Shown one piece after another: positions 4,230 through 53,800 of a stretch of 64,000 nucleotides of DNA; the stretch's first letter is position 1, and each line of letters begins with the position of its first letter. The notes beneath the pieces are model-generated. The model did not search any database. It was not told the origin of the DNA and saw only the letters and a list, made by a program, of their open reading frames with translations. Position numbers and translations under genes: made by a program. This DNA is from Escherichia coli. Lineage in GTDB: Bacteria > Pseudomonadota > Gammaproteobacteria > Enterobacterales > Enterobacteriaceae. The stretch lies in assembly GCF_051903065.1 (NCBI RefSeq), contig NZ_CP178438.1, one strand, 5' to 3'.

Positions 4230-4811
4230 TTAGTCTTTATCGATTCGGCTGGCTACCGCGCCCTGCTGGTTGCGATATTTCGCATCTTCACGGCGGTTGT
4301 AAGGTCGCGCCGCCGGGCCGGAAAGCGGCTCAAAGCTCAGCGCACCAATTAACATGCCCGGACGTAGCGCCAGCGGCAGCTTACCGGAGTTGTAGAACTC
4401 CAGCACAATGCAGCCAGACCAGCCCGGATCGATGCGGTGCGCGGTGACGTGCACCATCAGCCCCAGACGCGCCAGTGAGGAACGCCCGTCCAGCCAGCCC
4501 ACCAGATCGGCTGGCAGCGTCACCGACTCCAGCGTCACCGCCAGCGCCAGCTCTCCTGGGTGAAGATAGAACGCCTCGCTTTCATCGAGAACGATCTCAT
4601 CGCTCATCACGCGGTCAAGCGCGGCGCTCACTTCATCTTTGGGACCGCTCAGATCGATAAACGCTGCCGTGTGACCACGGAAGGTACGAAATTTATTGCC
4701 CAGGCGCACATCCACCGTCGCGCCGTTAATACGCTCCACTGGCGGACGTGGGTTGATCGACAAACGGCCTTCATCAAGCCAGGCTTCAATATCTCGGTCA
4801 CACAGACGCAT
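4230..4811 (-). CDS. dcd: dCTP deaminase, 193 aa
   Basis: 193-aa ORF; dCTP deaminase family; conserved dcd-udk pairing. Confidence 0.9.
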
Positions 4812-11634: not shown

Positions 11635-13584
11635 TCAGCAGCGGCTTAAATCTGCCTGCGCCTGAGCCAGTTTTTCTGCCGCCTGACGTAACGGTTCCAT
11701 CAACGGCATGGTCCGTGCTGGAGCATGAAGGCGGAATCGCTGCAACTCTGTCGCGCCGACAGTCAACGCCGATTCCAGCCGATGTCGTTTGGCGGCCATT
11801 TTCGCCATTACCGCTTGTCTTTCTGCAGGCGTTACCGCTTCGTTCGGCCTGAACACAAAACGGCGTTCACAGCTCGCTTTCCAGTCGATGACCGCCTGGG
11901 TCAGATGATCACCAAACCCTTTAACTTGCTTAACCCCACGACGGGTAACATCCGCGGCTGTTTCAATACCAAAAGACCGTAACGCCGCTTTACGCGCAGG
12001 GCCAACGCCGGGAATAGAGGCAGCATCAATAAAAAATCCCTCCAGAAACTTCTGCTTCTGCCGTTCCCTTGCAGTGTCGTGAAGTGCTGCCAGAGCACGT
12101 TTTTCTTCTTCCGGTAACCCGAGAATTTCGTCCTTCATTTTTTCGAGCATCGTCCGTTTGGCGATAAAACCTTCCAGCCCGCCCAACTGTTGGATCTGGT
12201 TGACTAAATGGTCATAGTCCATTTTCGCGCGATTAAATGCCTCACGGCGTTGCTGGATTTCTGCTTTATAAGCTTTGCTTGTCAGACTGCCAATAATCCA
12301 GATAGCCGCCAGCACAGGAACCAAAATAATATAACGCGGTTCTGCCTGAAGGCCGCAAAGCAACAGCGATAACGCTGACAGTGCGATCTCAATCAGAATG
12401 ATGTATTCGCGCCGTAACAGGCCTAAAGGAAGCGGCCTGCCAGTCGGTTGGAAATGATCGGGTAATGGCAATTGCAATGCTGGCGGTGCTACTGACGCCA
12501 TCACCATCGCCCAGACTTTCGCCAGCACAAAATCACCGCCGGTGGTAATGACCTCTTCACCGAGATCAATAAAATAGATAACGCCTTGATTATCCAGCGT
12601 ACACCACGGGCAGTCAGTCAAATGAGCGGGGTAAACATGCATTGCTGAAACGGTACATTTCTTTAACTGTTGGCGTAGAGAGTCCAGTGCCGCTACCCAC
12701 GCTTTAGCCGTCGGACGCCCCGTTGCCACGCCACTTTCCGTGAATGCCTGCTGAAACATGGCTTCAACATCGCCCGGTAACATCGACAGCGGAATAGATC
12801 GTGGCGGCGGTTTTAAACCACGCCGCTGATTATCTGACGCGTAGGCATAACGGAAATGGGCAATATCCGTCTCCAGCGCATTACCCGCATCAGAGATAAG
12901 CGGCACACCAGAATAAGGATGCCGCCCACCAAACAAGACGTGAAAAATCAGCAACGCAAGGCCAAAATTATCGTGATTTTCTGTGCGTTCAAAACCGACA
13001 AATGATGGCAAGGTTTGTAGCTCTGGCGGCGTAAAATGCGACACGCCAACTTCGCATAAATGCAACGTTCCATTGGCGTTAATCTGAAAGGAGTCGCTGT
13101 CGATCAACACCACTTTGCTGTCGCGACCTACCATAAAGCTGTTCTGGTTTACGTCACCCACGACGTGCCCGTGCTCGTGAACCGTAGCAAAAGATGAAGC
13201 AATATTACGCGCAACATAGAGTAGAAAATCCCACGCACAATGAGGGTAACTCTGGCGACGATGTGCCGGGCTATAGATCATATGAATCGGTTCTTTACCA
13301 GAAACTTTTGGCATCATAAAACCGATAACTTTTCCGCCTCGTCCACCGTGAAGCGTTGCCTGCGGCCAGGCGACATAATTCAGCAACTGTGCATCAGCTG
13401 TCGCAGCCATAAAGGCAAGTTTGTCCTGTTTTAAGGCGGGTGGCGGCGTGTGATAAATCTTAGCGACGCTATCGACAAACTCCTCGATATCATAAACCGC
13501 GCCTTCGCCACCTTTGCCCAGTTCACGGCCTGGCGTAACGCACTCACCAGTAGCAGTATATAAAGTGGGTTTCATGGTAACCAC
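11635..13584 (-). CDS. yegI: Membrane-anchored eukaryotic-like Ser/Thr protein kinase YegI with C-terminal tandem helix-hairpin-helix motifs, ~648 aa
   Basis: Gly-rich loop GKGGEGAVY and VAKIY lysine motif; two hydrophobic helices mid-protein; C-terminal IPGVGPARKAALRSFG and VKGFGDHLTQ HhH-like motifs. Alternative start 3 codons downstream (MKPTLY). Confidence 0.8.
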   Translation of the reverse strand: MVTMKPTLYTATGECVTPGRELGKGGEGAVYDIEEFVDSVAKIYHTPPPALKQDKLAFMAATADAQLLNYVAWPQATLHGGRGGKVIGFMMPKVSGKEPIHMIYSPAHRRQSYPHCAWDFLLYVARNIASSFATVHEHGHVVGDVNQNSFMVGRDSKVVLIDSDSFQINANGTLHLCEVGVSHFTPPELQTLPSFVGFERTENHDNFGLALLIFHVLFGGRHPYSGVPLISDAGNALETDIAHFRYAYASDNQRRGLKPPPRSIPLSMLPGDVEAMFQQAFTESGVATGRPTAKAWVAALDSLRQQLKKCTVSAMHVYPAHLTDCPWCTLDNQGVIYFIDLGEEVITTGGDFVLAKVWAMVMASVAPPALQLPLPDHFQPTGRPLPLGLLRREYIILIEIALSALSLLLCGLQAEPRYIILVPVLAAIWIIGSLTSKAYKAEIQQRREAFNRAKMDYDHLVNQIQQLGGLEGFIAKRTMLEKMKDEILGLPEEEKRALAALHDTARERQKQKFLEGFFIDAASIPGVGPARKAALRSFGIETAADVTRRGVKQVKGFGDHLTQAVIDWKASCERRFVFRPNEAVTPAERQAVMAKMAAKRHRLESALTVGATELQRFRLHAPARTMPLMEPLRQAAEKLAQAQADLSRC

Positions 13585-14333
13585 AGCGCCAGTGCCAACG
13601 TTTTATCATCATCGGTACGCTCGTTTACCGCCGGGCTGGACAAAAACTGCTTTAACAATTCAGGTAATAAATCGAGCTGTTCCTGCGTTGCTGCCGCCAG
13701 TCCATTGAAAAAAGGGGTAAAGAAAGGCACATGCGGAGAATTATCCAACATATTTAACGCCAGTCGCTGGATACCATCCGTAAATGCTGCAACTTTATGC
13801 ACACGCTCAGTGCTGGTGAAAGTTTCCAGTCTGGAAACAGCATCTTCATCGCTAATGAAATGCGTCATATTGGCATATTCACCCACCATCGGCGTGAGCG
13901 GCAGTTCCAGACCACGACCAAAATCCACCACTACACCGCCGTCGCCAATTTGCATAATCAATGTGCCGTTAGCCGATGAAATCAATCCCAGAAACGTGCA
14001 GGCAAAATCGCGAACTGCTAATGCTTTGGCTTCTGCCTCGGCAAAAAGTCGTTGACGAATGGTCAGTACCATATTTGTGGCGAGGACATCATTAAGCCCC
14101 AATTCACCGTCCTGTACTTTTTGCACCATAAACGCCATCGCTTCATTGACGGCGAGCTTCGCGCCTTCTCCTCCCTGCGAAACGCTACCTGCGCCATCAG
14201 CAAGGAACATCACCAGTAATGGCTGCTGGTCATTTAGCCAGGCAACCTGCATCTGGCAGGCATCCTGACAAGGTAAATCAGCGCTAATGTGCGACGTTCC
14301 AACAGCGGATGCATAAACCAGACGCCAGCTCAC
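13572..14333 (-). CDS. yegK: PP2C-family Ser/Thr phosphatase YegK, 253 aa
   Basis: 253-aa ORF, stop overlaps the yegI start by 13 nt; PP2C-like Asp-rich motifs ([15 protein letters not shown]). Confidence 0.8.
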
Positions 14334-14989: not shown

Positions 14990-15170
14990 AAGAAATCATT
15001 TCTTAGAGAATTATTGAGGTCCGGTATCATACCGACTGCAATAATGAAATAAGAGCAAACGAAGAAACTTTCAGAATTAGTCCCGGCGGCGCAGAAAATT
15101 TTGCTATTCGCCTCGCAAGAACGGAGAGCCGTCGATTGACACTAAGGGCGGAGTGACATAATTTCAGGAG

Positions 15171-15310
15171 TGAGGGTTAGGGAAAGGTTTCCCCCTCCCC
15201 CTGGTGTTCTTAGTAAGCCTGGAAGCTAATCACTAAGAGTATCACCAGTATGATGACGTGCTTCATCATAACCCTTTCCTTATTTAAGGCCCCTTCCTCG
15301 GGAGGGGCTT
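15171..15310 (+). ncRNA. sibA: SibA antitoxin sRNA, antisense to ibsA (ends approximate)
   Basis: Sigma70 promoter TTGACA (15136-15141), 17-nt spacer, TAATTT (15159-15164). Transcript fully overlaps ibsA on the opposite strand and ends at a GC hairpin plus T-rich tract near 15285-15310. Confidence 0.6.
15210..15269 (-). CDS. ibsA: Type I toxin IbsA, 19-aa hydrophobic peptide MMKHVIILVILLVISFQAY
   Basis: Hand-translated minus-strand ORF; too short for the ORF track. Matches the Ibs toxin family. Confidence 0.75.
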   Translation of the reverse strand: MMKHVIILVILLVISFQAY

Positions 15311-15504
15311 TCCCGTTTCAGCATCCCGCTGAAATCGTCGGCTTACCTCCTTTCGCCATGCATGCAGTCTATCGCTGACTTGCGGATAAAATAGTTTCCA
15401 GTGTGATTATTGCGTAACGTCTCGCAAAGAATATTTGCTGGCAGGATCGCAGACTGCAAAGCCTGCAGATTGACAATCTGACCGTGAAGGCATACTTTCA
15501 GGAG

Positions 15505-15640
15505 TGAGGGTTGAGCGGGGTTTCCCCCGCCCTGGTAGTCTTAGTAAGCTGGCCAGCTAATGACTAAGAGCACCACGATGATGAGTAGCTTCATCATGAC
15601 CCTTTTCTTATTAAAGGATGACAAAATAATACAAATCACT
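15505..15640 (+). ncRNA. sibB: SibB antitoxin sRNA, antisense to ibsB (ends approximate)
   Basis: Second copy of the Sib repeat. Promoter TTGACA (15470-15475), 17-nt spacer, TACTTT (15493-15498). Overlaps ibsB. Confidence 0.55.
15541..15597 (-). CDS. ibsB: Type I toxin IbsB, 18-aa hydrophobic peptide MMKLLIIVVLLVISWPAY
   Basis: Hand-translated minus-strand ORF in the second Sib/Ibs repeat unit. Confidence 0.75.
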   Translation of the reverse strand: MMKLLIIVVLLVISWPAY

Positions 15641-15763
15641 TAAAAATCATCGCATTACACGAATTTGCGGTTAAATAATAGACTACAAAGTGCGACAAAA
15701 CGCAACATATGCAGTCACTATGAATCAACTACTTAGATAGTACTAGTGACCTGTAACAGAGCA

Positions 15764-15806
15764 TTAGCGCAAGGTGATTTTTTGTCCTCTTGCGCTAATT
15801 TTTTGT
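15764..15806 (+). terminator. Candidate rho-independent terminator
   Basis: 10-bp inverted repeat TTAGCGCAAG / CTTGCGCTAA (15764-15773 / 15789-15798) followed by TTTTTTG. The 15-nt loop is long, so confidence is moderate. Confidence 0.4.
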
Positions 15807-15961
15807 CATCAAACATGTCGTTCTCCAGAGAAGCATAAAGCCTTGCAATCAAGTGCAAAGCTTTGTGTACCAGAGTTTTTCCTCATCAACTACCACAAGT
15901 ATCGATCGATTGAGACTTGGATGATAGACTTCATGCCTTTCAGAACTCATTGATTACATAA

Positions 15962-16324
15962 ATGTTAAAGCTATTTGCAAAGTACACCTCGATTGGTGTG
16001 CTGAACACACTTATACACTGGGTGGTTTTTGGTGTATGTATCTATGCCGCGCATACCAATCAGGCTCTGGCAAACTTCTCAGGTTTCGTTGTGGCTGTGA
16101 GCTTTAGCTTCTTCGCGAATGCAAAATTCACATTCAAAGCATCGACTACAACGATGCGCTACATGTTATATGTCGGGTTCATGGGAACACTGAGTGCTAC
16201 TGTTGGATGGGCTGCTGATAAGTGCTCGCTTCCTCCAATTATCACTCTTATCACCTTCTCCGCCATCAGCCTGGTGTGCGGTTTCGTCTATTCAAAGTTC
16301 ATTGTCTTTAGGGATGCGAAATGA
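15962..16324 (+). CDS. gtrA: GtrA-family bactoprenol-glucose flippase, 120 aa
   Basis: 120-aa four-helix membrane protein; near-identical to phage P22/SfV-type GtrA as I recall it ([20 protein letters not shown]...). Confidence 0.9.
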
Positions 16325-17241
16325 AAATATCTCTGATTGTTCCTGTCTTCAATGAAGAAGATGCGATACCAATTTTCTATAAAACGGTACGTGAATTCGA
16401 AGAGTTGAAGCCTTATGACGTCGAAATTGTATTCATAAATGACGGAAGCAAAGACGCCACGGAATCAATTATTAACGTTCTGGCTGTTTCAGATCCGCTA
16501 GTTGTTCCGCTGTCATTTACACGAAACTTTGGTAAAGAACCAGCATTGTTTGCAGGGTTAGACCATGCAACGGGCGATGCTGTTATTCCTATTGATGTTG
16601 ACCTGCAAGACCCGATTGAGGTTATTCCTCATCTGATTGAAAAGTGGCAGGCAGGTGCCGATATGGTGCTGGCAAAACGTTCAGATCGTTCAACTGATGG
16701 AAGATTAAAACGGAAAACCGCTGAGTGGTTCTATAAGCTTCACAATAAAATAAGCAATCCAAAGATTGAAGAGAATGTCGGCGATTTCCGCCTGATGTCT
16801 CGAGAGGTGGTAGAAAATATCAAACTACTGCCAGAGCGTAACCTGTTTATGAAAGGCGTTTTATCTTGGGTTGGCGGTAAGACGGATGTTGTTGAATACA
16901 TCCGTGCTGAACGCGTTGCCGGAAGCACAAAATTCAATGGCTGGAAGCTATGGAACCTGGCGCTTGAGGGAATTACAAGTTTCTCGACCTTCCCCTTACG
17001 CGTGTGGACTTACATCGGCCTACTTGTTGCGGGACTCTCGTTCCTTTACGGGGTGTGGATGATTTTCGACACATTGGTGTTCGGTAATGCTGTCCGCGGA
17101 TATCCTTCTATTCTTGTATCTATTCTCTTTTTAGGTGGCATTCAGTTAATTGGTATTGGGGTGCTGGGAGAATACATCGGCAGAATTTACGTAGAAGTTA
17201 AAAATCGTCCTAGATATGTACTTAAAAAAATAAAAGGTTAG
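16321..17241 (+). CDS. gtrB: GtrB bactoprenol glucosyltransferase (GT2 family), 306 aa
   Basis: GT2 motifs (DGSKDAT, DVDLQD) and C-terminal TM helices; 4-nt overlap with gtrA. Confidence 0.9.
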
Positions 17242-17246
17242 AGAAT

Positions 17247-18623
17247 ATGCGCATTTCAAAAAATGAAAAATACCTTTCATTGATTATGATAGCATTTTAC
17301 TTGCCATTTTTATTATCTGATTTACCTTTTAGGGACGATCTAAGCAGGACTTATTGGGGTTTTGTTGGGTTGTCTCAATTAGGTAGACCATTGGCAGACA
17401 TTGTTTATAGTTTGGTTGGATTTGGCTATGAGGGTGTTAACCTCAGCCCTATGCCTAAAATTATAGCGCTATTAATAATATTATCGTCTGCGATATTTTC
17501 ATACAGAACGCTATTCAACTCAATAGGAGCAACCGGGTTACTCTCTTTATCTATTTTCTTTGCAAATCCATTTATTATTCAAAATTTTGCATATCAGTAC
17601 GACTGTTTTCCAATGGCTTTATCTATTTTATTGGCGACATTATCTGTATTATATAGACCAAGATCAAGCTATTTTTATTTTCTTAGCGCATCATTTTTAT
17701 TAACTAGCGCAATATCACTTTATCAAGCATCTATATTTATTGCGGCATCTTTATATTTATGTAAGATCACTATTTATTTCGTTAACGATAGAAATCGCAG
17801 AGATGTTTTTATAGAATGCATGCTTACTCTTTTGTCTTCTTTTTTCTCTATTGCATGTTACATGGTGATTTTACTTTTTGTAGAAAATGGCGTGTCAAAA
17901 CGAGCTAGCATTACAGGGCCAAGTGGCGTTATTAGCAATATCGAGTTCCTTTTGGATAGGTTAAATAGCCTTTACCACTCGGTTTATATTTTTTTTATTA
18001 TTTTGTCATTAGTATTAATATTCTCTCTCTTGAGGATTTTTATCCTAAAAAGATATATCAATTTATGCGTGATATTACTAATACTTGTTGCGCTGCTAGT
18101 CTCTTCCCTACTCCCATCTGTCATCCTTAAGGAAGGGTTCGCCGGACCAAGAGTTTTAATGTCTATTTGTTCGGTATTTATATTTATATCTATCATTGCA
18201 ACCGGAAAAGAAAAATACGTATACGCCATGGTGTTATCTGTTTTAATGATGCATTCCATGTCTATTTCATACGCATTTTCAGGTGACATTAAGGCACAAT
18301 ACGATAGATACTCGATGATATCATCTCTTGTTTATAAAGATATTGATAATTACGTGTCGTCAAATACAGCAAAAATATACATTTCTTGCAAATCAACCCC
18401 ATCACAAAGAGAGTACGTTTTCTATAAATTCAACAATCACATAGCATGGCTCAACCCAGAAGAGGCTTGGGCTATCAGGTTTTTCATAAGAAATAATGGC
18501 GAGAGCAGGGTGGTGCACTCATGGGATGAATGCTTTGATATAAATGGAGGTAAGATCGTTAAAGAAAATGCATTTTATAAAATGGTTGAAAATAAAAATT
18601 CTTACTATTTCATAATGAAATAA
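17247..18623 (+). CDS. gtrC: GtrC-type serotype-specific O-antigen glucosyltransferase (polytopic membrane protein), 458 aa
   Basis: Third gene of a gtr operon; highly hydrophobic and AT-rich with strong codon bias relative to its neighbours, typical of horizontally acquired gtrC-type genes. Target specificity cannot be called from sequence. Confidence 0.7.
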   Translation: MRISKNEKYLSLIMIAFYLPFLLSDLPFRDDLSRTYWGFVGLSQLGRPLADIVYSLVGFGYEGVNLSPMPKIIALLIILSSAIFSYRTLFNSIGATGLLSLSIFFANPFIIQNFAYQYDCFPMALSILLATLSVLYRPRSSYFYFLSASFLLTSAISLYQASIFIAASLYLCKITIYFVNDRNRRDVFIECMLTLLSSFFSIACYMVILLFVENGVSKRASITGPSGVISNIEFLLDRLNSLYHSVYIFFIILSLVLIFSLLRIFILKRYINLCVILLILVALLVSSLLPSVILKEGFAGPRVLMSICSVFIFISIIATGKEKYVYAMVLSVLMMHSMSISYAFSGDIKAQYDRYSMISSLVYKDIDNYVSSNTAKIYISCKSTPSQREYVFYKFNNHIAWLNPEEAWAIRFFIRNNGESRVVHSWDECFDINGGKIVKENAFYKMVENKNSYYFIMK

Positions 18624-18630
18624 ATATAGG

Positions 18631-18662
18631 CGGGGGGGGGGGTAACAATCCCCCGTCTTTTT
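18631..18662 (+). terminator. Rho-independent terminator after gtrC
   Basis: CGGGGGGGGGGG-TAACAAT-CCCCCG hairpin (G11 run pairing with C5) followed by TCTTTTTT. Confidence 0.6.
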
Positions 18663-18849
18663 TGCTACGGCAAGTGATTAATCGCAACAATTGATTATTA
18701 TTTATAACAAATGCGTCATCTACCGCTATTCGGGTGACATTTTCATTCCTTATCTAAAATACAATTAAATAATTAACAAATAATTAAACGAATTGCATGA
18801 AAAATACATTACCGAAAAGTTAGAATAGTGTGCGATTGAAAGTTAATAA

Positions 18850-21381
18850 CTATATAACGGATAGCGTTCTTATGTCATTGCTAGCTGGTGATGCCATAAC
18901 TATCTGTGTTACGTTAGCGCCAGACACCGTATACGTCAGAATTACGTTACCAACGGCTCCTATATTAAAGTTTTGTTTAGCTCCTGAGGTACCTATAGCT
19001 CTGGCATTCGTTAAAGTATACGTGCTTCCCGCAGTGAATCCTGTAGCAATTACAAATTGTTGACCAACTTTAAAAGGAACTGTCATTGTTGCGGATGTTG
19101 ACTCGACAGTAGCAAACGGCAGGCCAGGCTGTTTAACCCCCGTCACATCCCAGAACTCACAGTTACGCACCAATGCTCGACCAATTAAATCGCGAGTTAC
19201 AGGGAATGTTGTCTGGTCCTGTGATAAGAATGCTCCAACAATTTGCACGTTATCGAGCGTAATATCGTGTACTGTGGCCCCATCTATAGGACTTAACGTT
19301 GGTGATGCACTCCATAATTTACCACCCTTCATTTTGATACTTACAGGCCCGTTAGGGTCTGTCCCTCTAAAAGCGCGAATACTCTCAAATTTGCAATCTG
19401 TAAATTCATAGCTGCCGCGTTGGTTAGTTTCGAACAATGTATACGCCTCACCTGACACTCCGTGTCTTACATCACTGGCAACAACGCGCGGATTATGGCG
19501 GAATGATGCAGACGTGACAGAGAAAAATGGCGCGCAGACATCGTTAATAAGAATGTCTGTTGTATAACGCCCTGTAACAGCGCTCTCAGAGTCACTCATA
19601 TCCGAATATAGCGCTTTGAAGCGGGAGAAGTCTATGTTTAGACCTATTCCTGCACTTTTTGGTAATTGTCCAAAATCAAGCCCGTCAATAACAATTTTCT
19701 TAGGGAAATAAAGGGTGTTATCTCGAGCTACAGTTATTAATGTACCCGGATAAGTCAAGACGAAACCTGGATACATTTTAACATCTTTCAAGGTAACATT
19801 ATTGAATAACGTGGGGCTTATAGGCGACCCGCTACTAGGCCCTTGCCCAGCAGTAACAGCTGCGTTTATGATACCATTTCCGGGTGCGCCGCTGCGCAGG
19901 CCAGTTAACTTAATATTCTCCATGTATAAATCACCATCGAAGCCCCCCCCCAGCGTCAGAGCGAGTCGAAATAATATTACCAGGCTTATATGGTGAAGCA
20001 TTAAATATTGAATTGGTTACATACAAATCCCCGATACCAGAAGCGACGACACCATAAGTCCCAATATTACAGTCATTTATCTTTAAGTAGTTTTGGAAAG
20101 GTCTGTGGAAATCAATTCGACTAAGATCGCATCTTTCAAACCTTATATTGGCGCAATTATTGCTGCCTGTTGCCCCCCAGCCTTTACCATTTGCCGTTGC
20201 GTTTTTGATAGTGACATCCATAGAGTTAGATAGGGTTAAGGCGTATGCGTAGCTATCAACACCATCTATTAAGGCGTTTGCTATGGCTGGCGTGTATAAA
20301 CCATCAACTGTAACATCATAGCTTTCGTTAATTTCTATCCTGATATCATTAAAGTTTTGCGTTATCGGTCTGTTAATAAATGTCGTATTAACCAAGCGAA
20401 CTCGTGATGCTTGATTAATATAAATAATTCGATAATTCTTTGTAAGACTTTCGTCTATAGTCAATCCCTTAAGGTCTGCACATCTTTGCGTATTTTAAGT
20501 GCTTTAATTGATGTTGCGTTAGTTCCTAGGGCGTACTTAAGCGGGTTTTCAATGTATCCACGGTTATATACCCTGTTGAAATCTACGCGAGTTTGATTAA
20601 CGCCATCGAAAATAAACATAGGTTGAGATGTCGATAACTGAATGAAGCAACCGTCAAGGTCGGTATTAGAAGCCAAACCATCAAGATAGTTGCTACCTAT
20701 GTCGCGAGAGCCACTGGTGGACGTATTAACTCCATTAACTGGAGCCGAACCAGAACCGTATGTAACAGGGGCGACAGGCTGGCTAATAACAATTTGCCCT
20801 TTCCATGTAGCCGATGGTTTAAGCACACACCCGGTTAAATCCACATTTAAACTTTTAATATCAAGATAAGTATCACCATCTAGTAGAAAAGTTCCGTCAG
20901 ATTGCCTAACGTCTAAATTATTTGAATAAGCATAGTTCAGTGCCTTAGCTATGGCGGGAGCGTCATTTGTTACTCCATCACCAATAGCGCCAAACTCCTT
21001 CAACGTTACCCAGTATTTTACTTTCTCCAAGCTCTTTTGATATTGATCTGGGTCGTACTTCAGCACATTAGGAAAATAGAACTGCTGCGCACCATATGCA
21101 TCATAAACAGCCATAGAGTGGCCTTGCACAGTTACGAACTTGGCAATCTGTCCGTTATATACCGGATATCCAGCAGCGTTAATGATGATTGGTTGTGAAA
21201 CAGGAACGTGAGAACCATCCTCATTCTCCACATAAATCTGAATCTGGTTTTCAGGATTTACCGGGTCAGTGTCAATTTTTCCTATATAAATTTTGCCATT
21301 GGCAACCGCTTTAAAAGAACGTGCCATAGTGAAGAGTTGCGAAGGCATGCTTACCACAACATTTGCGGTGATATCTGTCAT
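18850..21381 (-). pseudogene. P22-like phage tailspike gene broken into three reading-frame segments (306 + 177 + 383 aa)
   Basis: The N-terminal ~120 aa ([34 protein letters not shown]...VLKYDPDQY) is the conserved P22-family tailspike head-binding domain. Downstream segments are beta-helix-like. Frames switch near 20461-20464 and at a G9 run (C9 on + strand, 19943-19951). Confidence 0.7.
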
Positions 21382-21438
21382 TTAATTTGCTCCAGATTCA
21401 AGGAATCGCCGCAGCATGGCTACGGTGAATTTTGTGCA

Positions 21439-21462
21439 TAAAAAACCCAGCCGAAGCTGGGT
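21439..21462 (-). terminator. Candidate rho-independent terminator upstream of the tailspike gene
   Basis: On the minus strand: CCCAGC-TTCG-GCTGGG hairpin followed by TTTTTTAT. Confidence 0.4.
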
Positions 21463-21522
21463 CGTTGCGTTGGTTATCTGTAAGTAGTTATGTGCTTAGG
21501 TAATTTGTATTAGCTCAGACCT

Positions 21523-22690
21523 GATCTGACAGTTACCGGTTATTTATACAGGTATCTGTCAGATTACATCCGGCTTAAATTTTTCTCGGCCCAGATGCGC
21601 TTTCCATCAAGTAACGTTTCCATTGGCGTCCGCCCATTGCGCATTTTTCCCTGATGGGTTCGTTCATTATTATAGTGAGCCAGCCACTCATCAAGATCCG
21701 ATTGCAATGTATCGAGAGCTCCATACAACTTTTTACGGAACGTCACCTGATAAAATTCGTTCAGTATCGTCTTATGGAACCGCTCGCAGATGCCATTTGT
21801 CTGCGGTGACATCGCTTTAGTTTTCGTGTGGTCTATATCATTTATTGCCAGATATAGCTGGTAGTCATGCTGTTCCACCTTACCGCAGTACTCTGTTCCT
21901 CTGTCGGTCAGTATTCTCAGCATTGGCAGGTTTTGCGATTCGTAAAATGGCAACACACGATCATTCAGCAGGTCAGCAGCCGTGATCGGTGTTTTGGTTA
22001 CATACAGTTTACAGTGTGCGACCTTCGAGTAGGTGTCAACGAACGTTTGCTGATAAATGCGTCCGACTCCTTTCAGATTACCCACGTAGAACGTATCCTG
22101 AGAGCCCAGATAACCGGGATGTGCGGTTTCGATTTCACCACACGCTTCGTCATCGCTGGCTTTACGCTCCAGAACGACTATCTGTGCTTCTGTCAGCTCG
22201 ATACCGTCACGGGCTACTTTTTCCTCCAGTGCTTTCAGCCGCTTTTTGAAGTTCTCAAGGTTATGCCGCAGCCAGACAGAACGTACACCCCTTCCTGAGA
22301 TGAAGACACCTTGCTTACGTAGCTCATTGCTGGTCCGGTGCTGGCCATGCGCAGGGTACGCGATGGCATAATCAACAACGGCCCGCTCAGTTGCATCATC
22401 GGTACGATTTTTTAGATTGGGCGTTCGTCGAGTGCGGTTAATCAGTGCATCCACCCCACCTTCATCAGCCAGTTCGCGATAACGGTAAAACGTATCACGC
22501 GAGACGCCCATGATTTTGCAGGCCTTCGAAACATTGCGGAGTTCTTCAGCCAGATTGAGCAAACCGGCTTTGTGTTTGATGACGGGATTGTTAGTATGAA
22601 GCATGAGAGTTACCTCGTGTTTTGTATAAGGATTCGACACCCATATCAAAACCGGTAACTCTCAACCTTTCAAGGCTCAGTGTCAGATCA
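21523..22690 (-). mobile_element. IS481-family insertion sequence (~1.17 kb)
   Basis: Terminal inverted repeats TGATCTGACA at 21523-21532 and, as reverse complement, 22681-22690. Single DDE transposase gene inside. No obvious target-site duplication. Confidence 0.6.
21564..22604 (-). CDS. IS481-family DDE (rve) transposase, ~346 aa
   Basis: N-terminal HTH region plus rve-type catalytic core ending in the IS481-family signature SPQTNGICERFHKTI. Start taken at MLHTNN; the track ORF begins 15 codons upstream at 22649. Confidence 0.75.
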   Translation of the reverse strand: MLHTNNPVIKHKAGLLNLAEELRNVSKACKIMGVSRDTFYRYRELADEGGVDALINRTRRTPNLKNRTDDATERAVVDYAIAYPAHGQHRTSNELRKQGVFISGRGVRSVWLRHNLENFKKRLKALEEKVARDGIELTEAQIVVLERKASDDEACGEIETAHPGYLGSQDTFYVGNLKGVGRIYQQTFVDTYSKVAHCKLYVTKTPITAADLLNDRVLPFYESQNLPMLRILTDRGTEYCGKVEQHDYQLYLAINDIDHTKTKAMSPQTNGICERFHKTILNEFYQVTFRKKLYGALDTLQSDLDEWLAHYNNERTHQGKMRNGRTPMETLLDGKRIWAEKNLSRM

Positions 22691-22755
22691 AGTCGCGACT
22701 AATACATGTACCCGTCATTCAGACGATTCCCGACAGTGTTTCATAATTCCTCCAT

Positions 22756-35888: not shown

Positions 35889-35924
35889 CATACAGCTGCA
35901 TTTATTAAGGTTATCATCCGTTTC

Positions 35925-36011
35925 GCTGAAAAACATAACCCATAAAATGCTAGCTGTACCAGGAACCACCTCCTTAGCCTGTGTAATCTCCCTTACACGG
36001 GCTTATTTTTT
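35925..36011 (+). ncRNA. cyaR: CyaR (RyeE) Hfq-dependent sRNA, ~87 nt
   Basis: GCTGAAAAACATAACCCATAAAATGCTAGCTGTACCAGGAACCACCTCCTTAGCCTGTGTAATCTCCCTTACACGGGCTTATTTTTT matches CyaR as I recall it, including the terminator hairpin and U-tail. Confidence 0.85.
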
Positions 36012-53661: not shown

Positions 53662-53800
53662 AGTTTGCTCCTGCCATAACGTGAAGAAGCAATGACCTGG
53701 TGGTCCGTGACTTCCCTACGCTGGCATTATCCAGATCAGGTGATACGGGTATTTCTCAGCCTTCACGCAGAAGGGCACCCCGAGTCGTTTGGTTGCGATG
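53662..53800 (-). promoter_or_regulatory. TPP (thi-box) riboswitch in the thiM leader
   Basis: Minus-strand sequence ...GGGGTGCCCTTCTGCGTGAAGGCTGAGAAATACCCGTATCACCTGATCTGGATAATGCCAGCGTAGGGAAGTCACGGACCACCAGGTCATTGC... matches the thiM TPP aptamer as I recall it. Confidence 0.85.

Follow-up and report, generated by a model that had tools for sequence, protein, structure and literature searches.

The closest described relatives of the locus studied here are the sibA/ibsA and sibB/ibsB units of Escherichia coli K-12 (formerly RyeC/RyeD, or QUAD repeats; Rfam family SIB_RNA, RF00113) and the sibC/ibsC unit, in which, as described by Han et al. 2010 (PMC2943612), an antisense RNA covers the whole toxin open reading frame (ORF) and its translation-initiation region and is built with an outer stem, P1, and a terminator stem, P7. 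In that work the SibC +1 was defined by primers as AAGGGTAAGGG, the 3' hairpins of SibC and SibD were terminators, and the SibD hairpin TCGGGAGGGGCTTTCCCGT was P7, 'the transcription terminator stem' located after target-recognition region 2 (TRD2). The ibsC and ibsD +1 positions were located 18 nt past the Sib 3' end, which puts them some 60 nt ahead of the ATG, and the ibs Shine-Dalgarno (SD) sequence was near +50 of a mRNA of approximately 160 nt (PMC2943612). Here, we analysed a 64,000-nucleotide stretch of E. coli DNA (assembly GCF_051903065.1, contig NZ_CP178438.1), referred to as the window, in which region 15130-15640 is identified by its sequence and gene order as the known sibA/ibsA-sibB/ibsB tandem type I toxin-antitoxin array located between yegL and mdtA. 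It is very probable, taken as a whole, that unit 1 of this known array is complete, that unit 2 is a half unit split by a phage, and that a deletion associated with an IS481-family insertion sequence (IS) followed later. The toxin-antitoxin pair as first described in an earlier note on this DNA was already known, because the locus is the established yegL-ibsA/sibA-ibsB/sibB-mdtA array, annotated in RefSeq and described in the Sib/Ibs literature; what is added here is the recognition of unit 2 as a phage-split half unit and the definition of the att core.

The array between yegL and mdtA

When the entire window was scanned with Rfam 15 at the gathering threshold (score 56 for SIB_RNA), unit 1 and unit 2 were matched on the plus strand at 15136-15284 (149.3 bits, E 3.8e-31) and 15470-15612 (133.3 bits, E 3.1e-27), respectively, in each case over model positions 1-147. 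Both scores were far over the threshold and well outside what chance would give, as expected for the tandem ibs/sib pair proposed in the earlier note. That note had also suggested aligning the units to each other and to characterised loci; 119 identical positions were found across the Rfam spans of 149 and 143 nt, and K-12 sibA and sibB were found at the corresponding locus. Strain 33F4 (NZ_CM147849) was 100% identical to the window, and its RefSeq annotation names 'ibsA: type I toxin-antitoxin system toxin IbsA' and 'Ibs family toxin' at the two ORF positions, with both ibs genes flanked by yegL and a gtr cluster. In a K-12 derivative the order yegL-ibsA-ibsB was identical and was followed immediately by mdtA. 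The locus, order, orientation, sib promoters and Sib fold of the K-12 array were all as in the window. Compared to K-12, IbsA was identical and unit 2 was identical at 135 of 143 positions, with four of the eight nucleotide changes grouped in the stretch that aligns with TRD1 of SibC; in contrast, unit 2 of the window was without the SibB terminator and the ibsB 5' untranslated region (UTR) and promoter. The sibC/ibsC unit of PMC2943612 shares the architecture and differs from the window units in its genomic locus and recognition sequence. The features of the array were as follows.

15136..15162, plus strand: sibA promoter; -35 TTGACA at 15136-15141 (6/6), 15-nt spacer, TG-extended -10 CATAAT at 15157-15162 (TGaCATAAT); 11/12, identical to K-12
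15159-15164, plus strand: alternative sibA -10, TAATTT, 17-nt spacer
15172..15320, plus strand: SibA antitoxin RNA, predicted at approximately 149 nt; terminator hairpin 15286-15311 and tail UCCCGUUU to 15320; ends by SibC/SibD homology
15269..15210, minus strand: ibsA ORF, initiated with ATGATG, 19 amino acids (aa), MMKHVIILVILLVISFQAY; accession WP_010723109.1, common to K-12
15270..15380, minus strand: ibsA SD, 5' UTR and weak promoter region; start placed at approximately 15332 from the ibsC/ibsD mapping; conserved in K-12
15470..15496, plus strand: sibB promoter; -35 TTGACA at 15470-15475 (6/6), 15-nt spacer, -10 CATACT at 15491-15496; 10/12
within the sibB promoter region, plus strand: alternative sibB -10, TACTTT, 17-nt spacer
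15506..15612, plus strand: SibB body, P1 to TRD2, without its own terminator; 133.3 bits in Rfam, 135/143 positions identical to K-12
15597..15541, minus strand: ibsB-type ORF, initiated with ATGATG, 18 aa, MMKLLIIVVLLVISWPAY; RefSeq WP_100249772.1, 'Ibs family toxin'

The ibsA ORF (15210-15269) was located entirely within predicted SibA (15172-15320), and the ibsB ORF (15541-15597) together with its SD was located entirely within the SibB body (15506-15612). Both peptides were strongly hydrophobic, with grand average of hydropathy (GRAVY) values of 1.98 and 2.13 for IbsA and IbsB, respectively, and the window IbsB matched K-12 IbsB (MMKLLIIVVLLVISFPAY) at 17 of 18 residues, the change being F15W. 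These results bear out the earlier description of 18-19 aa hydrophobic toxins encoded on the minus strand inside an antisense RNA. They had been described as too short for a 60-aa ORF cut-off, and indeed neither peptide appeared as such in the ORF list even at a 20-aa minimum. By analogy with the SibC/ibsC literature, the plus-strand Sib RNA would cover the whole ibs ORF and ribosome-binding site and repress ibs by base pairing.

Each Sib RNA is predicted to have its own sigma-70 promoter. The SibA and SibB transcript ends were placed by homology to the SibC/SibD primers of PMC2943612, and the predicted +1 positions, 15172 and 15506, were located 10 nt past CATAAT and CATACT, respectively, and 7-8 nt past the alternative -10 elements TAATTT and TACTTT. 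The alternative -10 with the 17-nt spacer may be the element in actual use, because it agrees better with the SibC +1 mapped in PMC2943612. Both sib promoters were overlooked by the stock promoter and terminator scan because it considers spacers of 16-18 nt only and their 15-nt spacer falls outside this range; the scan also picked up neither the Sib terminators nor the phage tI terminator described below, whose tail or loop lay outside the scan rules. It was replaced by a relaxed script plus RNA folds. The predicted SibA transcript folded at -57.2 kcal/mol (z -3.9) into the Rfam architecture with a terminator, and unit 1 with the ibsA upstream region was identical to K-12 at 249 of 265 positions. 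Judged on these features, unit 1 is complete, with a sib promoter, Sib body, its own terminator, and the ibsA ORF, SD, 5' UTR and upstream region.

The junction of unit 2 with phage DNA

Unit 2 ended at 15612/15613, 16 nt upstream of the ibsB ATG. In the alignment with K-12, identity extended through ...CATCATGACCCTTT(C/T)CTTATT and was followed by divergence: past this point K-12 has the hairpin GGCCCCTTCCTCGGGAGGGGCTTTCCCGTTT and approximately 110 more bp, whereas the window has unrelated AT-rich DNA. The limits of K-12 homology were window 15612, equal to position 4306 of the K-12 comparison locus (L002), and window 22706, equal to L002 4450. Homology restarted at window position ~22706, 128 bp before the mdtA start, so that 143 bp of K-12 (L002 4307-4449) were missing and 7.1 kb (15613-~22705) were found in their place. 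When a 3-kb query over the locus was searched against 5426 complete E. coli genomes, the left part was matched in 5421; nearly all of these matches stopped at window ~15612-15617, and 7 genomes continued. A P7 terminator of its own after TRD2 was present in unit 1 (15286-15311 plus the U-rich tail) but absent in unit 2, and an ibs promoter of its own with a 5' UTR of approximately 60 nt past the Sib 3' end was present for ibsA but absent for ibsB. By analogy with the mapped units, the missing 143 bp hold the SibB terminator and the ibsB 5' UTR and promoter; the ibs starts mapped there lie past 15612, and therefore ibsB must be without its start, its promoter and most of its 5' UTR. The P7 hairpin of SibB was replaced at 15613 by the P arm of a phage attachment site, and unit 2 is therefore read as a truncated member of SIB_RNA, a half unit in which the sibB promoter, the Sib body and the ibsB ORF remain. 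The following features were assigned to the junction and to the unoccupied counterpart of its core in unit 1.

15599..15619: phage-chromosome att core; B' site ACCCTTT at 15599-15605, overlap TCTTATT at 15606-15612, C site AAAGGAT at 15613-15619
15613..15760: HK022-type attP, P arm; 92.4% identity to the attP annotated in HK022 and in mEp235
15761..15806, plus strand: phage tI terminator, a hairpin with a T-run also called the 'sib' retroregulator; HK022 record X51962 annotates it as 'sib transcription processing site'
15271..15291: unoccupied 21-bp att core ACCCTTT-CCTTATT-TAAGGCC inside unit 1, equal to the attB halves deduced from M18

Window positions 15612-15808 were 92.4% identical to the annotated HK022 attP (P arm) plus 'sib transcription processing site', and to the mEp235 attP annotated as 'type HK022'. 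When the cores were aligned, the window read ACCCTTT-TCTTATT-AAAGGAT-GAC compared to CAACTTA-TTCACCT-AAAGGAT-GAC in HK022 attP. In other strains the overlap was CCTTATT, as defined from the alignment of HK022 attP, M18 and 2022N21-074. The C>T change at 15606, which turns the ibsB SD from AAGG to AAGA and also alters the SibB anti-SD, was private to the window lineage; five other lysogens keep the C, including RM14723 with the W15 allele. The earlier suggestion that the locus could be an integration or recombination boundary is supported, with phage-derived DNA starting at 15613. As a side observation, fusion to the P arm yields an in-frame, GTG-initiated 32-aa ORF on the minus strand (15541-15639; MICIILSSFNKKRV plus IbsB); this N-terminally extended IbsB is probably meaningless because it has no obvious SD.

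Strain M18 carried a prophage remnant at the same place, with genes for an excisionase and an integrase adjoining mdtA. Its junctions were ACCCTTT|CCTTATT|AAAGGAT and AAACTTA|CCTTATT|TAAGGCC-CCTTCCTCGGGAGGGGC, showing a 7-bp direct repeat, CCTTATT, on both sides of the prophage and HK022-like 7-bp core sites. The int end of M18 retained the SibB terminator and the ibsB promoter, and the joined P' and P halves, with the predicted phage core AAACTTA-CCTTATT-AAAGGAT, were collinear with HK022 attP over 98% of its length. M18 Int was 97% identical to that of phage Gally, a P22-like Lederbergvirus with an HK022 core and the order xis-int-attP-cargo-tailspike. Compared to the HK022 attP/Int module, the C site AAAGGAT was identical, the C' site was one base off (AAACTTA in M18, CAACTTA in HK022), and the tI/'sib' hairpin follows the P arm as in the window. 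In contrast, the overlap was CCTTATT and not TTCACCT, and the target was the sibB/ibsB unit and not the HK022 attB. As stated in Elias et al. (PMC7736782), the HK022 overlap may have an arbitrary sequence provided that attP and attB share it. The simplest reading of these sequences would be an HK022-type module in which the overlap was changed from TTCACCT to CCTTATT, a change by which the integrase target would have moved to the sibB/ibsB unit.

In the proposed course of events, a P22-like or other lambdoid phage with an HK022-type integrase module would have recombined within the 7-bp CCTTATT, an overlap that corresponds to the SibB anti-SD and the ibsB SD. Integration would have left the sibB promoter, the Sib body and the ibsB ORF beside the phage P arm and carried the SibB terminator and the ibsB 5' UTR and promoter to the far end of the prophage. 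A later IS481-associated deletion would have taken away most of the prophage, along with the att site on the int side and the 143 bp of chromosomal DNA. Neither int nor xis was present in the RefSeq annotation of the window island, and both were present in M18; with these genes deleted, the window holds a one-ended, immobile remnant.

A query made of the sibB body and 108 nt of the P arm was found with at least 80% coverage in 91 of the 5426 genomes, which means that about 1.7% of complete E. coli genomes have a prophage dividing their last unit. Five of these 91 genomes were inspected in detail. All five carried the junction ACCCTTTCCTTATT|AAAGGATGAC at the yegL array, with the prophage on the last Ibs unit, whether the strain had one, two or three. 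The possibility that the phage integrates at unit 1 or at another Sib locus was considered and rejected on the same five junctions. The att core of unit 1 in the window (sibA, 15271-15291) was unoccupied, yet every sampled lysogen used the last unit of its array. The number of Ibs/Sib copies at yegL varied: one in RM14723 (L008 6042-6098, with an IS3 in yegL), two in K-12 and in the window, and three in 2014C-3011 (L010 5382-6098); many O157 and ST131 genomes had three units, annotated 'Ibs family toxin (x2)' plus ibsA. The cargo next to the att site was different in each strain.

Window: gtrABC
2022N21-074: retron Eco8 (reverse transcriptase plus effector)
M18: DUF4236/DUF2971 genes
RM14723: nleD/nleC/nleB2
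AMSHJX01: nleA
2014C-3011: espJ/nleH/cif

In the comparison loci the cargo was located at L005 9704-13094, L008 6519-9719, L009 6719-7960, L010 6519-11266 and L004 9590-14427.

Expected expression of ibsB and SibB and alternative explanations

With its native promoter lost, ibsB is probably silent or nearly so, and low expression from sites in the P arm may be conceivable. SibB, transcribed from its intact promoter, would read through to tI as a chimeric RNA of approximately 300 nt, or be processed to a shorter form, because no terminator precedes the tI hairpin at 15761-15806. In the fold of 15506-15812 (-93.5 kcal/mol, z -5.7) the Sib body was kept and the tI hairpin was formed; past the SibB body, no other strong hairpin with a U-run was found. 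The orientation of tI is correct for SibB, since in HK022 int is read through attP into tI. Such a SibB would keep both target-recognition regions. SibC species shortened by approximately 30 nt at the 3' end were observed in PMC2943612, and SibC(1-78) was reported there to repress when fused to a foreign terminator; by analogy, these observations suggest that a 3'-extended SibB could still pair with its target.

The earlier note described the pair as having intact promoters. This stands for both sib promoters and for the ibsA upstream region and fails for ibsB, where the cut is 16 nt upstream of the ATG. That both units are complete, independent modules with all four promoters intact is accordingly very improbable: although both Sib bodies cover the Rfam model from 1 to 147, both ORFs are intact and both sib promoters are present, K-12 homology is gone at the cut, the 143-bp segment with terminator, 5' UTR and promoter is missing, and the ibs starts mapped in PMC2943612 fall past the junction. 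Nor is a full-length RF00113 match proof of a complete gene, because the model ends ahead of the terminator. A different explanation of the junction is that the island came by IS481 transposition or general recombination and that its abutment on sibB is a coincidence not mediated by Int. The IS481-family element does form the right edge of the island and the integrase is absent from the window, but the IS accounts for the right-hand deletion only. On its left the island begins with an attP P arm whose limit is precisely the HK022 C site, the identical junction occurs in five other strains whose cargo is unrelated, and M18 has xis-int, the P' arm and the 7-bp direct repeat; a coincidental origin is therefore extremely improbable.

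Several points weigh against the reading of unit 2 as a phage-split half unit whose toxin has been silenced. Only one att junction survives in the window, the 7-bp repeat being seen in M18, and the window overlap reads TCTTATT and not CCTTATT. Among 50,697 phage records only phages with the TTCACCT core (HK022, mEp235 and Gally) and no free phage with a CCTTATT core were found, and an exact search of IMG/VR with strict 22-nt and 18-nt core patterns based on M18 gave 0 matches. That ibsB is silent and that SibB is approximately 300 nt long are themselves deductions from the sequence. The P arm is AT-rich, and three minus-strand promoter-like sites scoring 8/12 were found in it with the relaxed script (15705>15675, 15674>15646 and 15655>15626); these could give some ibsB transcription, and the native ibs promoters are also weak by consensus. 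It might then be argued that unit 2 works with borrowed parts, a P-arm promoter driving ibsB with a new 5' UTR and tI terminating SibB. The three sites are 30-110 nt upstream of the ibsB ATG, the orientation of tI is right, and TRD1-only SibC fragments on a foreign terminator still repress (PMC2943612). However, the stock scan found zero minus-strand promoters of at least 9/12 in the region, 8/12 sites are commonplace in AT-rich DNA, and the ibsB SD is weakened by the lineage-specific C>T at 15606, so that a working unit 2 appears unlikely. The C>T change would fit relaxed selection or counter-selection.

Island contents and meaning

The island that separates the phage-split unit 2 from mdtA, also carried by strains 33F4, ECNB21-M121 and 23CRST027, contained the following features.

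15613..22705: island of approximately 7.1 kb absent from K-12, with the P arm, tI, gtrABC, hypothetical genes, a tailspike fragment and an IS481-family element
15962-16324: gtrA
16321-17241: gtrB
17247-18623: gtrC-like gene, annotated 'glucosyltransferase domain-containing protein'
18857-20472, minus strand: hypothetical genes of 357 aa and 186 aa (RefSeq) that overlap each other, placed past gtrC and ahead of the tailspike fragment
21041-21389: P22-type tailspike head-binding-domain pseudogene, truncated, beside the IS481-family element
21506-22706: IS481-family element with imperfect 26-nt inverted repeats (21506-21531 and 22681-22706)
21572-22612, minus strand: IS481-family transposase

The third gene of the gtr cassette is probably the serotype-specific gtrC, because of its annotation. 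The window gtrA-gtrB were approximately 90% identical in nucleotide sequence to the gtrABC O-antigen glucosylation cassettes of Shigella phages SfI/SfII/SfIV/SfV, and their placement, after attP and ahead of the tailspike gene, agrees with P22-like phages such as Gally. The order of the island, from the P arm and tI through gtrABC and the hypothetical genes to the tailspike head-binding fragment, was that of Gally. In contrast to the phage cassettes, the window copy is a stranded remnant with no integrase and at another chromosomal site. The IS481-family element was flanked by the truncated tailspike pseudogene and, towards mdtA, by the K-12-type DNA upstream of that gene.

Elsewhere in the window, a full-length match to the CyaR/RyeE small RNA (RF00112, 100.7 bits) was found on the plus strand at 35923-36008, and a thiamine pyrophosphate (TPP) riboswitch (RF00059, 71.2 bits) on the minus strand at 53696-53792, upstream of thiM-thiD in the syntenic M18 locus. 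At ~11635-14333, yegJ, which in K-12 is located between yegI and pphC, was absent from the window and from M18, and the window yegI and pphC overlapped by 4 nt. Between yegH and asmA, on the plus strand at ~781-1806, RefSeq lists a gene for an 'IS110 family RNA-guided transposase'.

These findings call for caution in annotation: a full-length SIB_RNA match with an intact Ibs ORF is no evidence of a functional unit, because the RF00113 model reaches neither the terminator nor the ibs promoter, which is located farther out. Where unit 2 is split, a precise lambdoid integration site falls within a type I toxin-antitoxin unit; this site apparently arose through the 7-bp overlap change alone in an HK022-type attP, and it offers a small example of integrase retargeting and of the rewiring of a host antisense-RNA locus by a prophage. 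Prophages at this site bring serotype-conversion genes, a retron or type III secretion system (T3SS) effectors next to att. Literature searches on integration at ibsB/sibB or yegL-mdtA found no description of the attB, with a coverage that was incomplete and gives no proof of novelty, and no description of an overlap-switched HK022-type integrase lineage was found in the literature searched. It is a tentative and rather doubtful proposal that the last Sib/Ibs unit of the yegL-mdtA array is the dedicated attB of such a lineage and that integration there is functionally meaningful. If true, integration would reversibly deprive the toxin ORF of its promoter and the antitoxin RNA of its terminator, with the phage tI/'sib' terminator substituting for that of SibB; lysogeny would disarm ibsB and excision would re-arm it, and the site would double as an entry point for cargo as varied as gtrABC, a retron and T3SS effectors.

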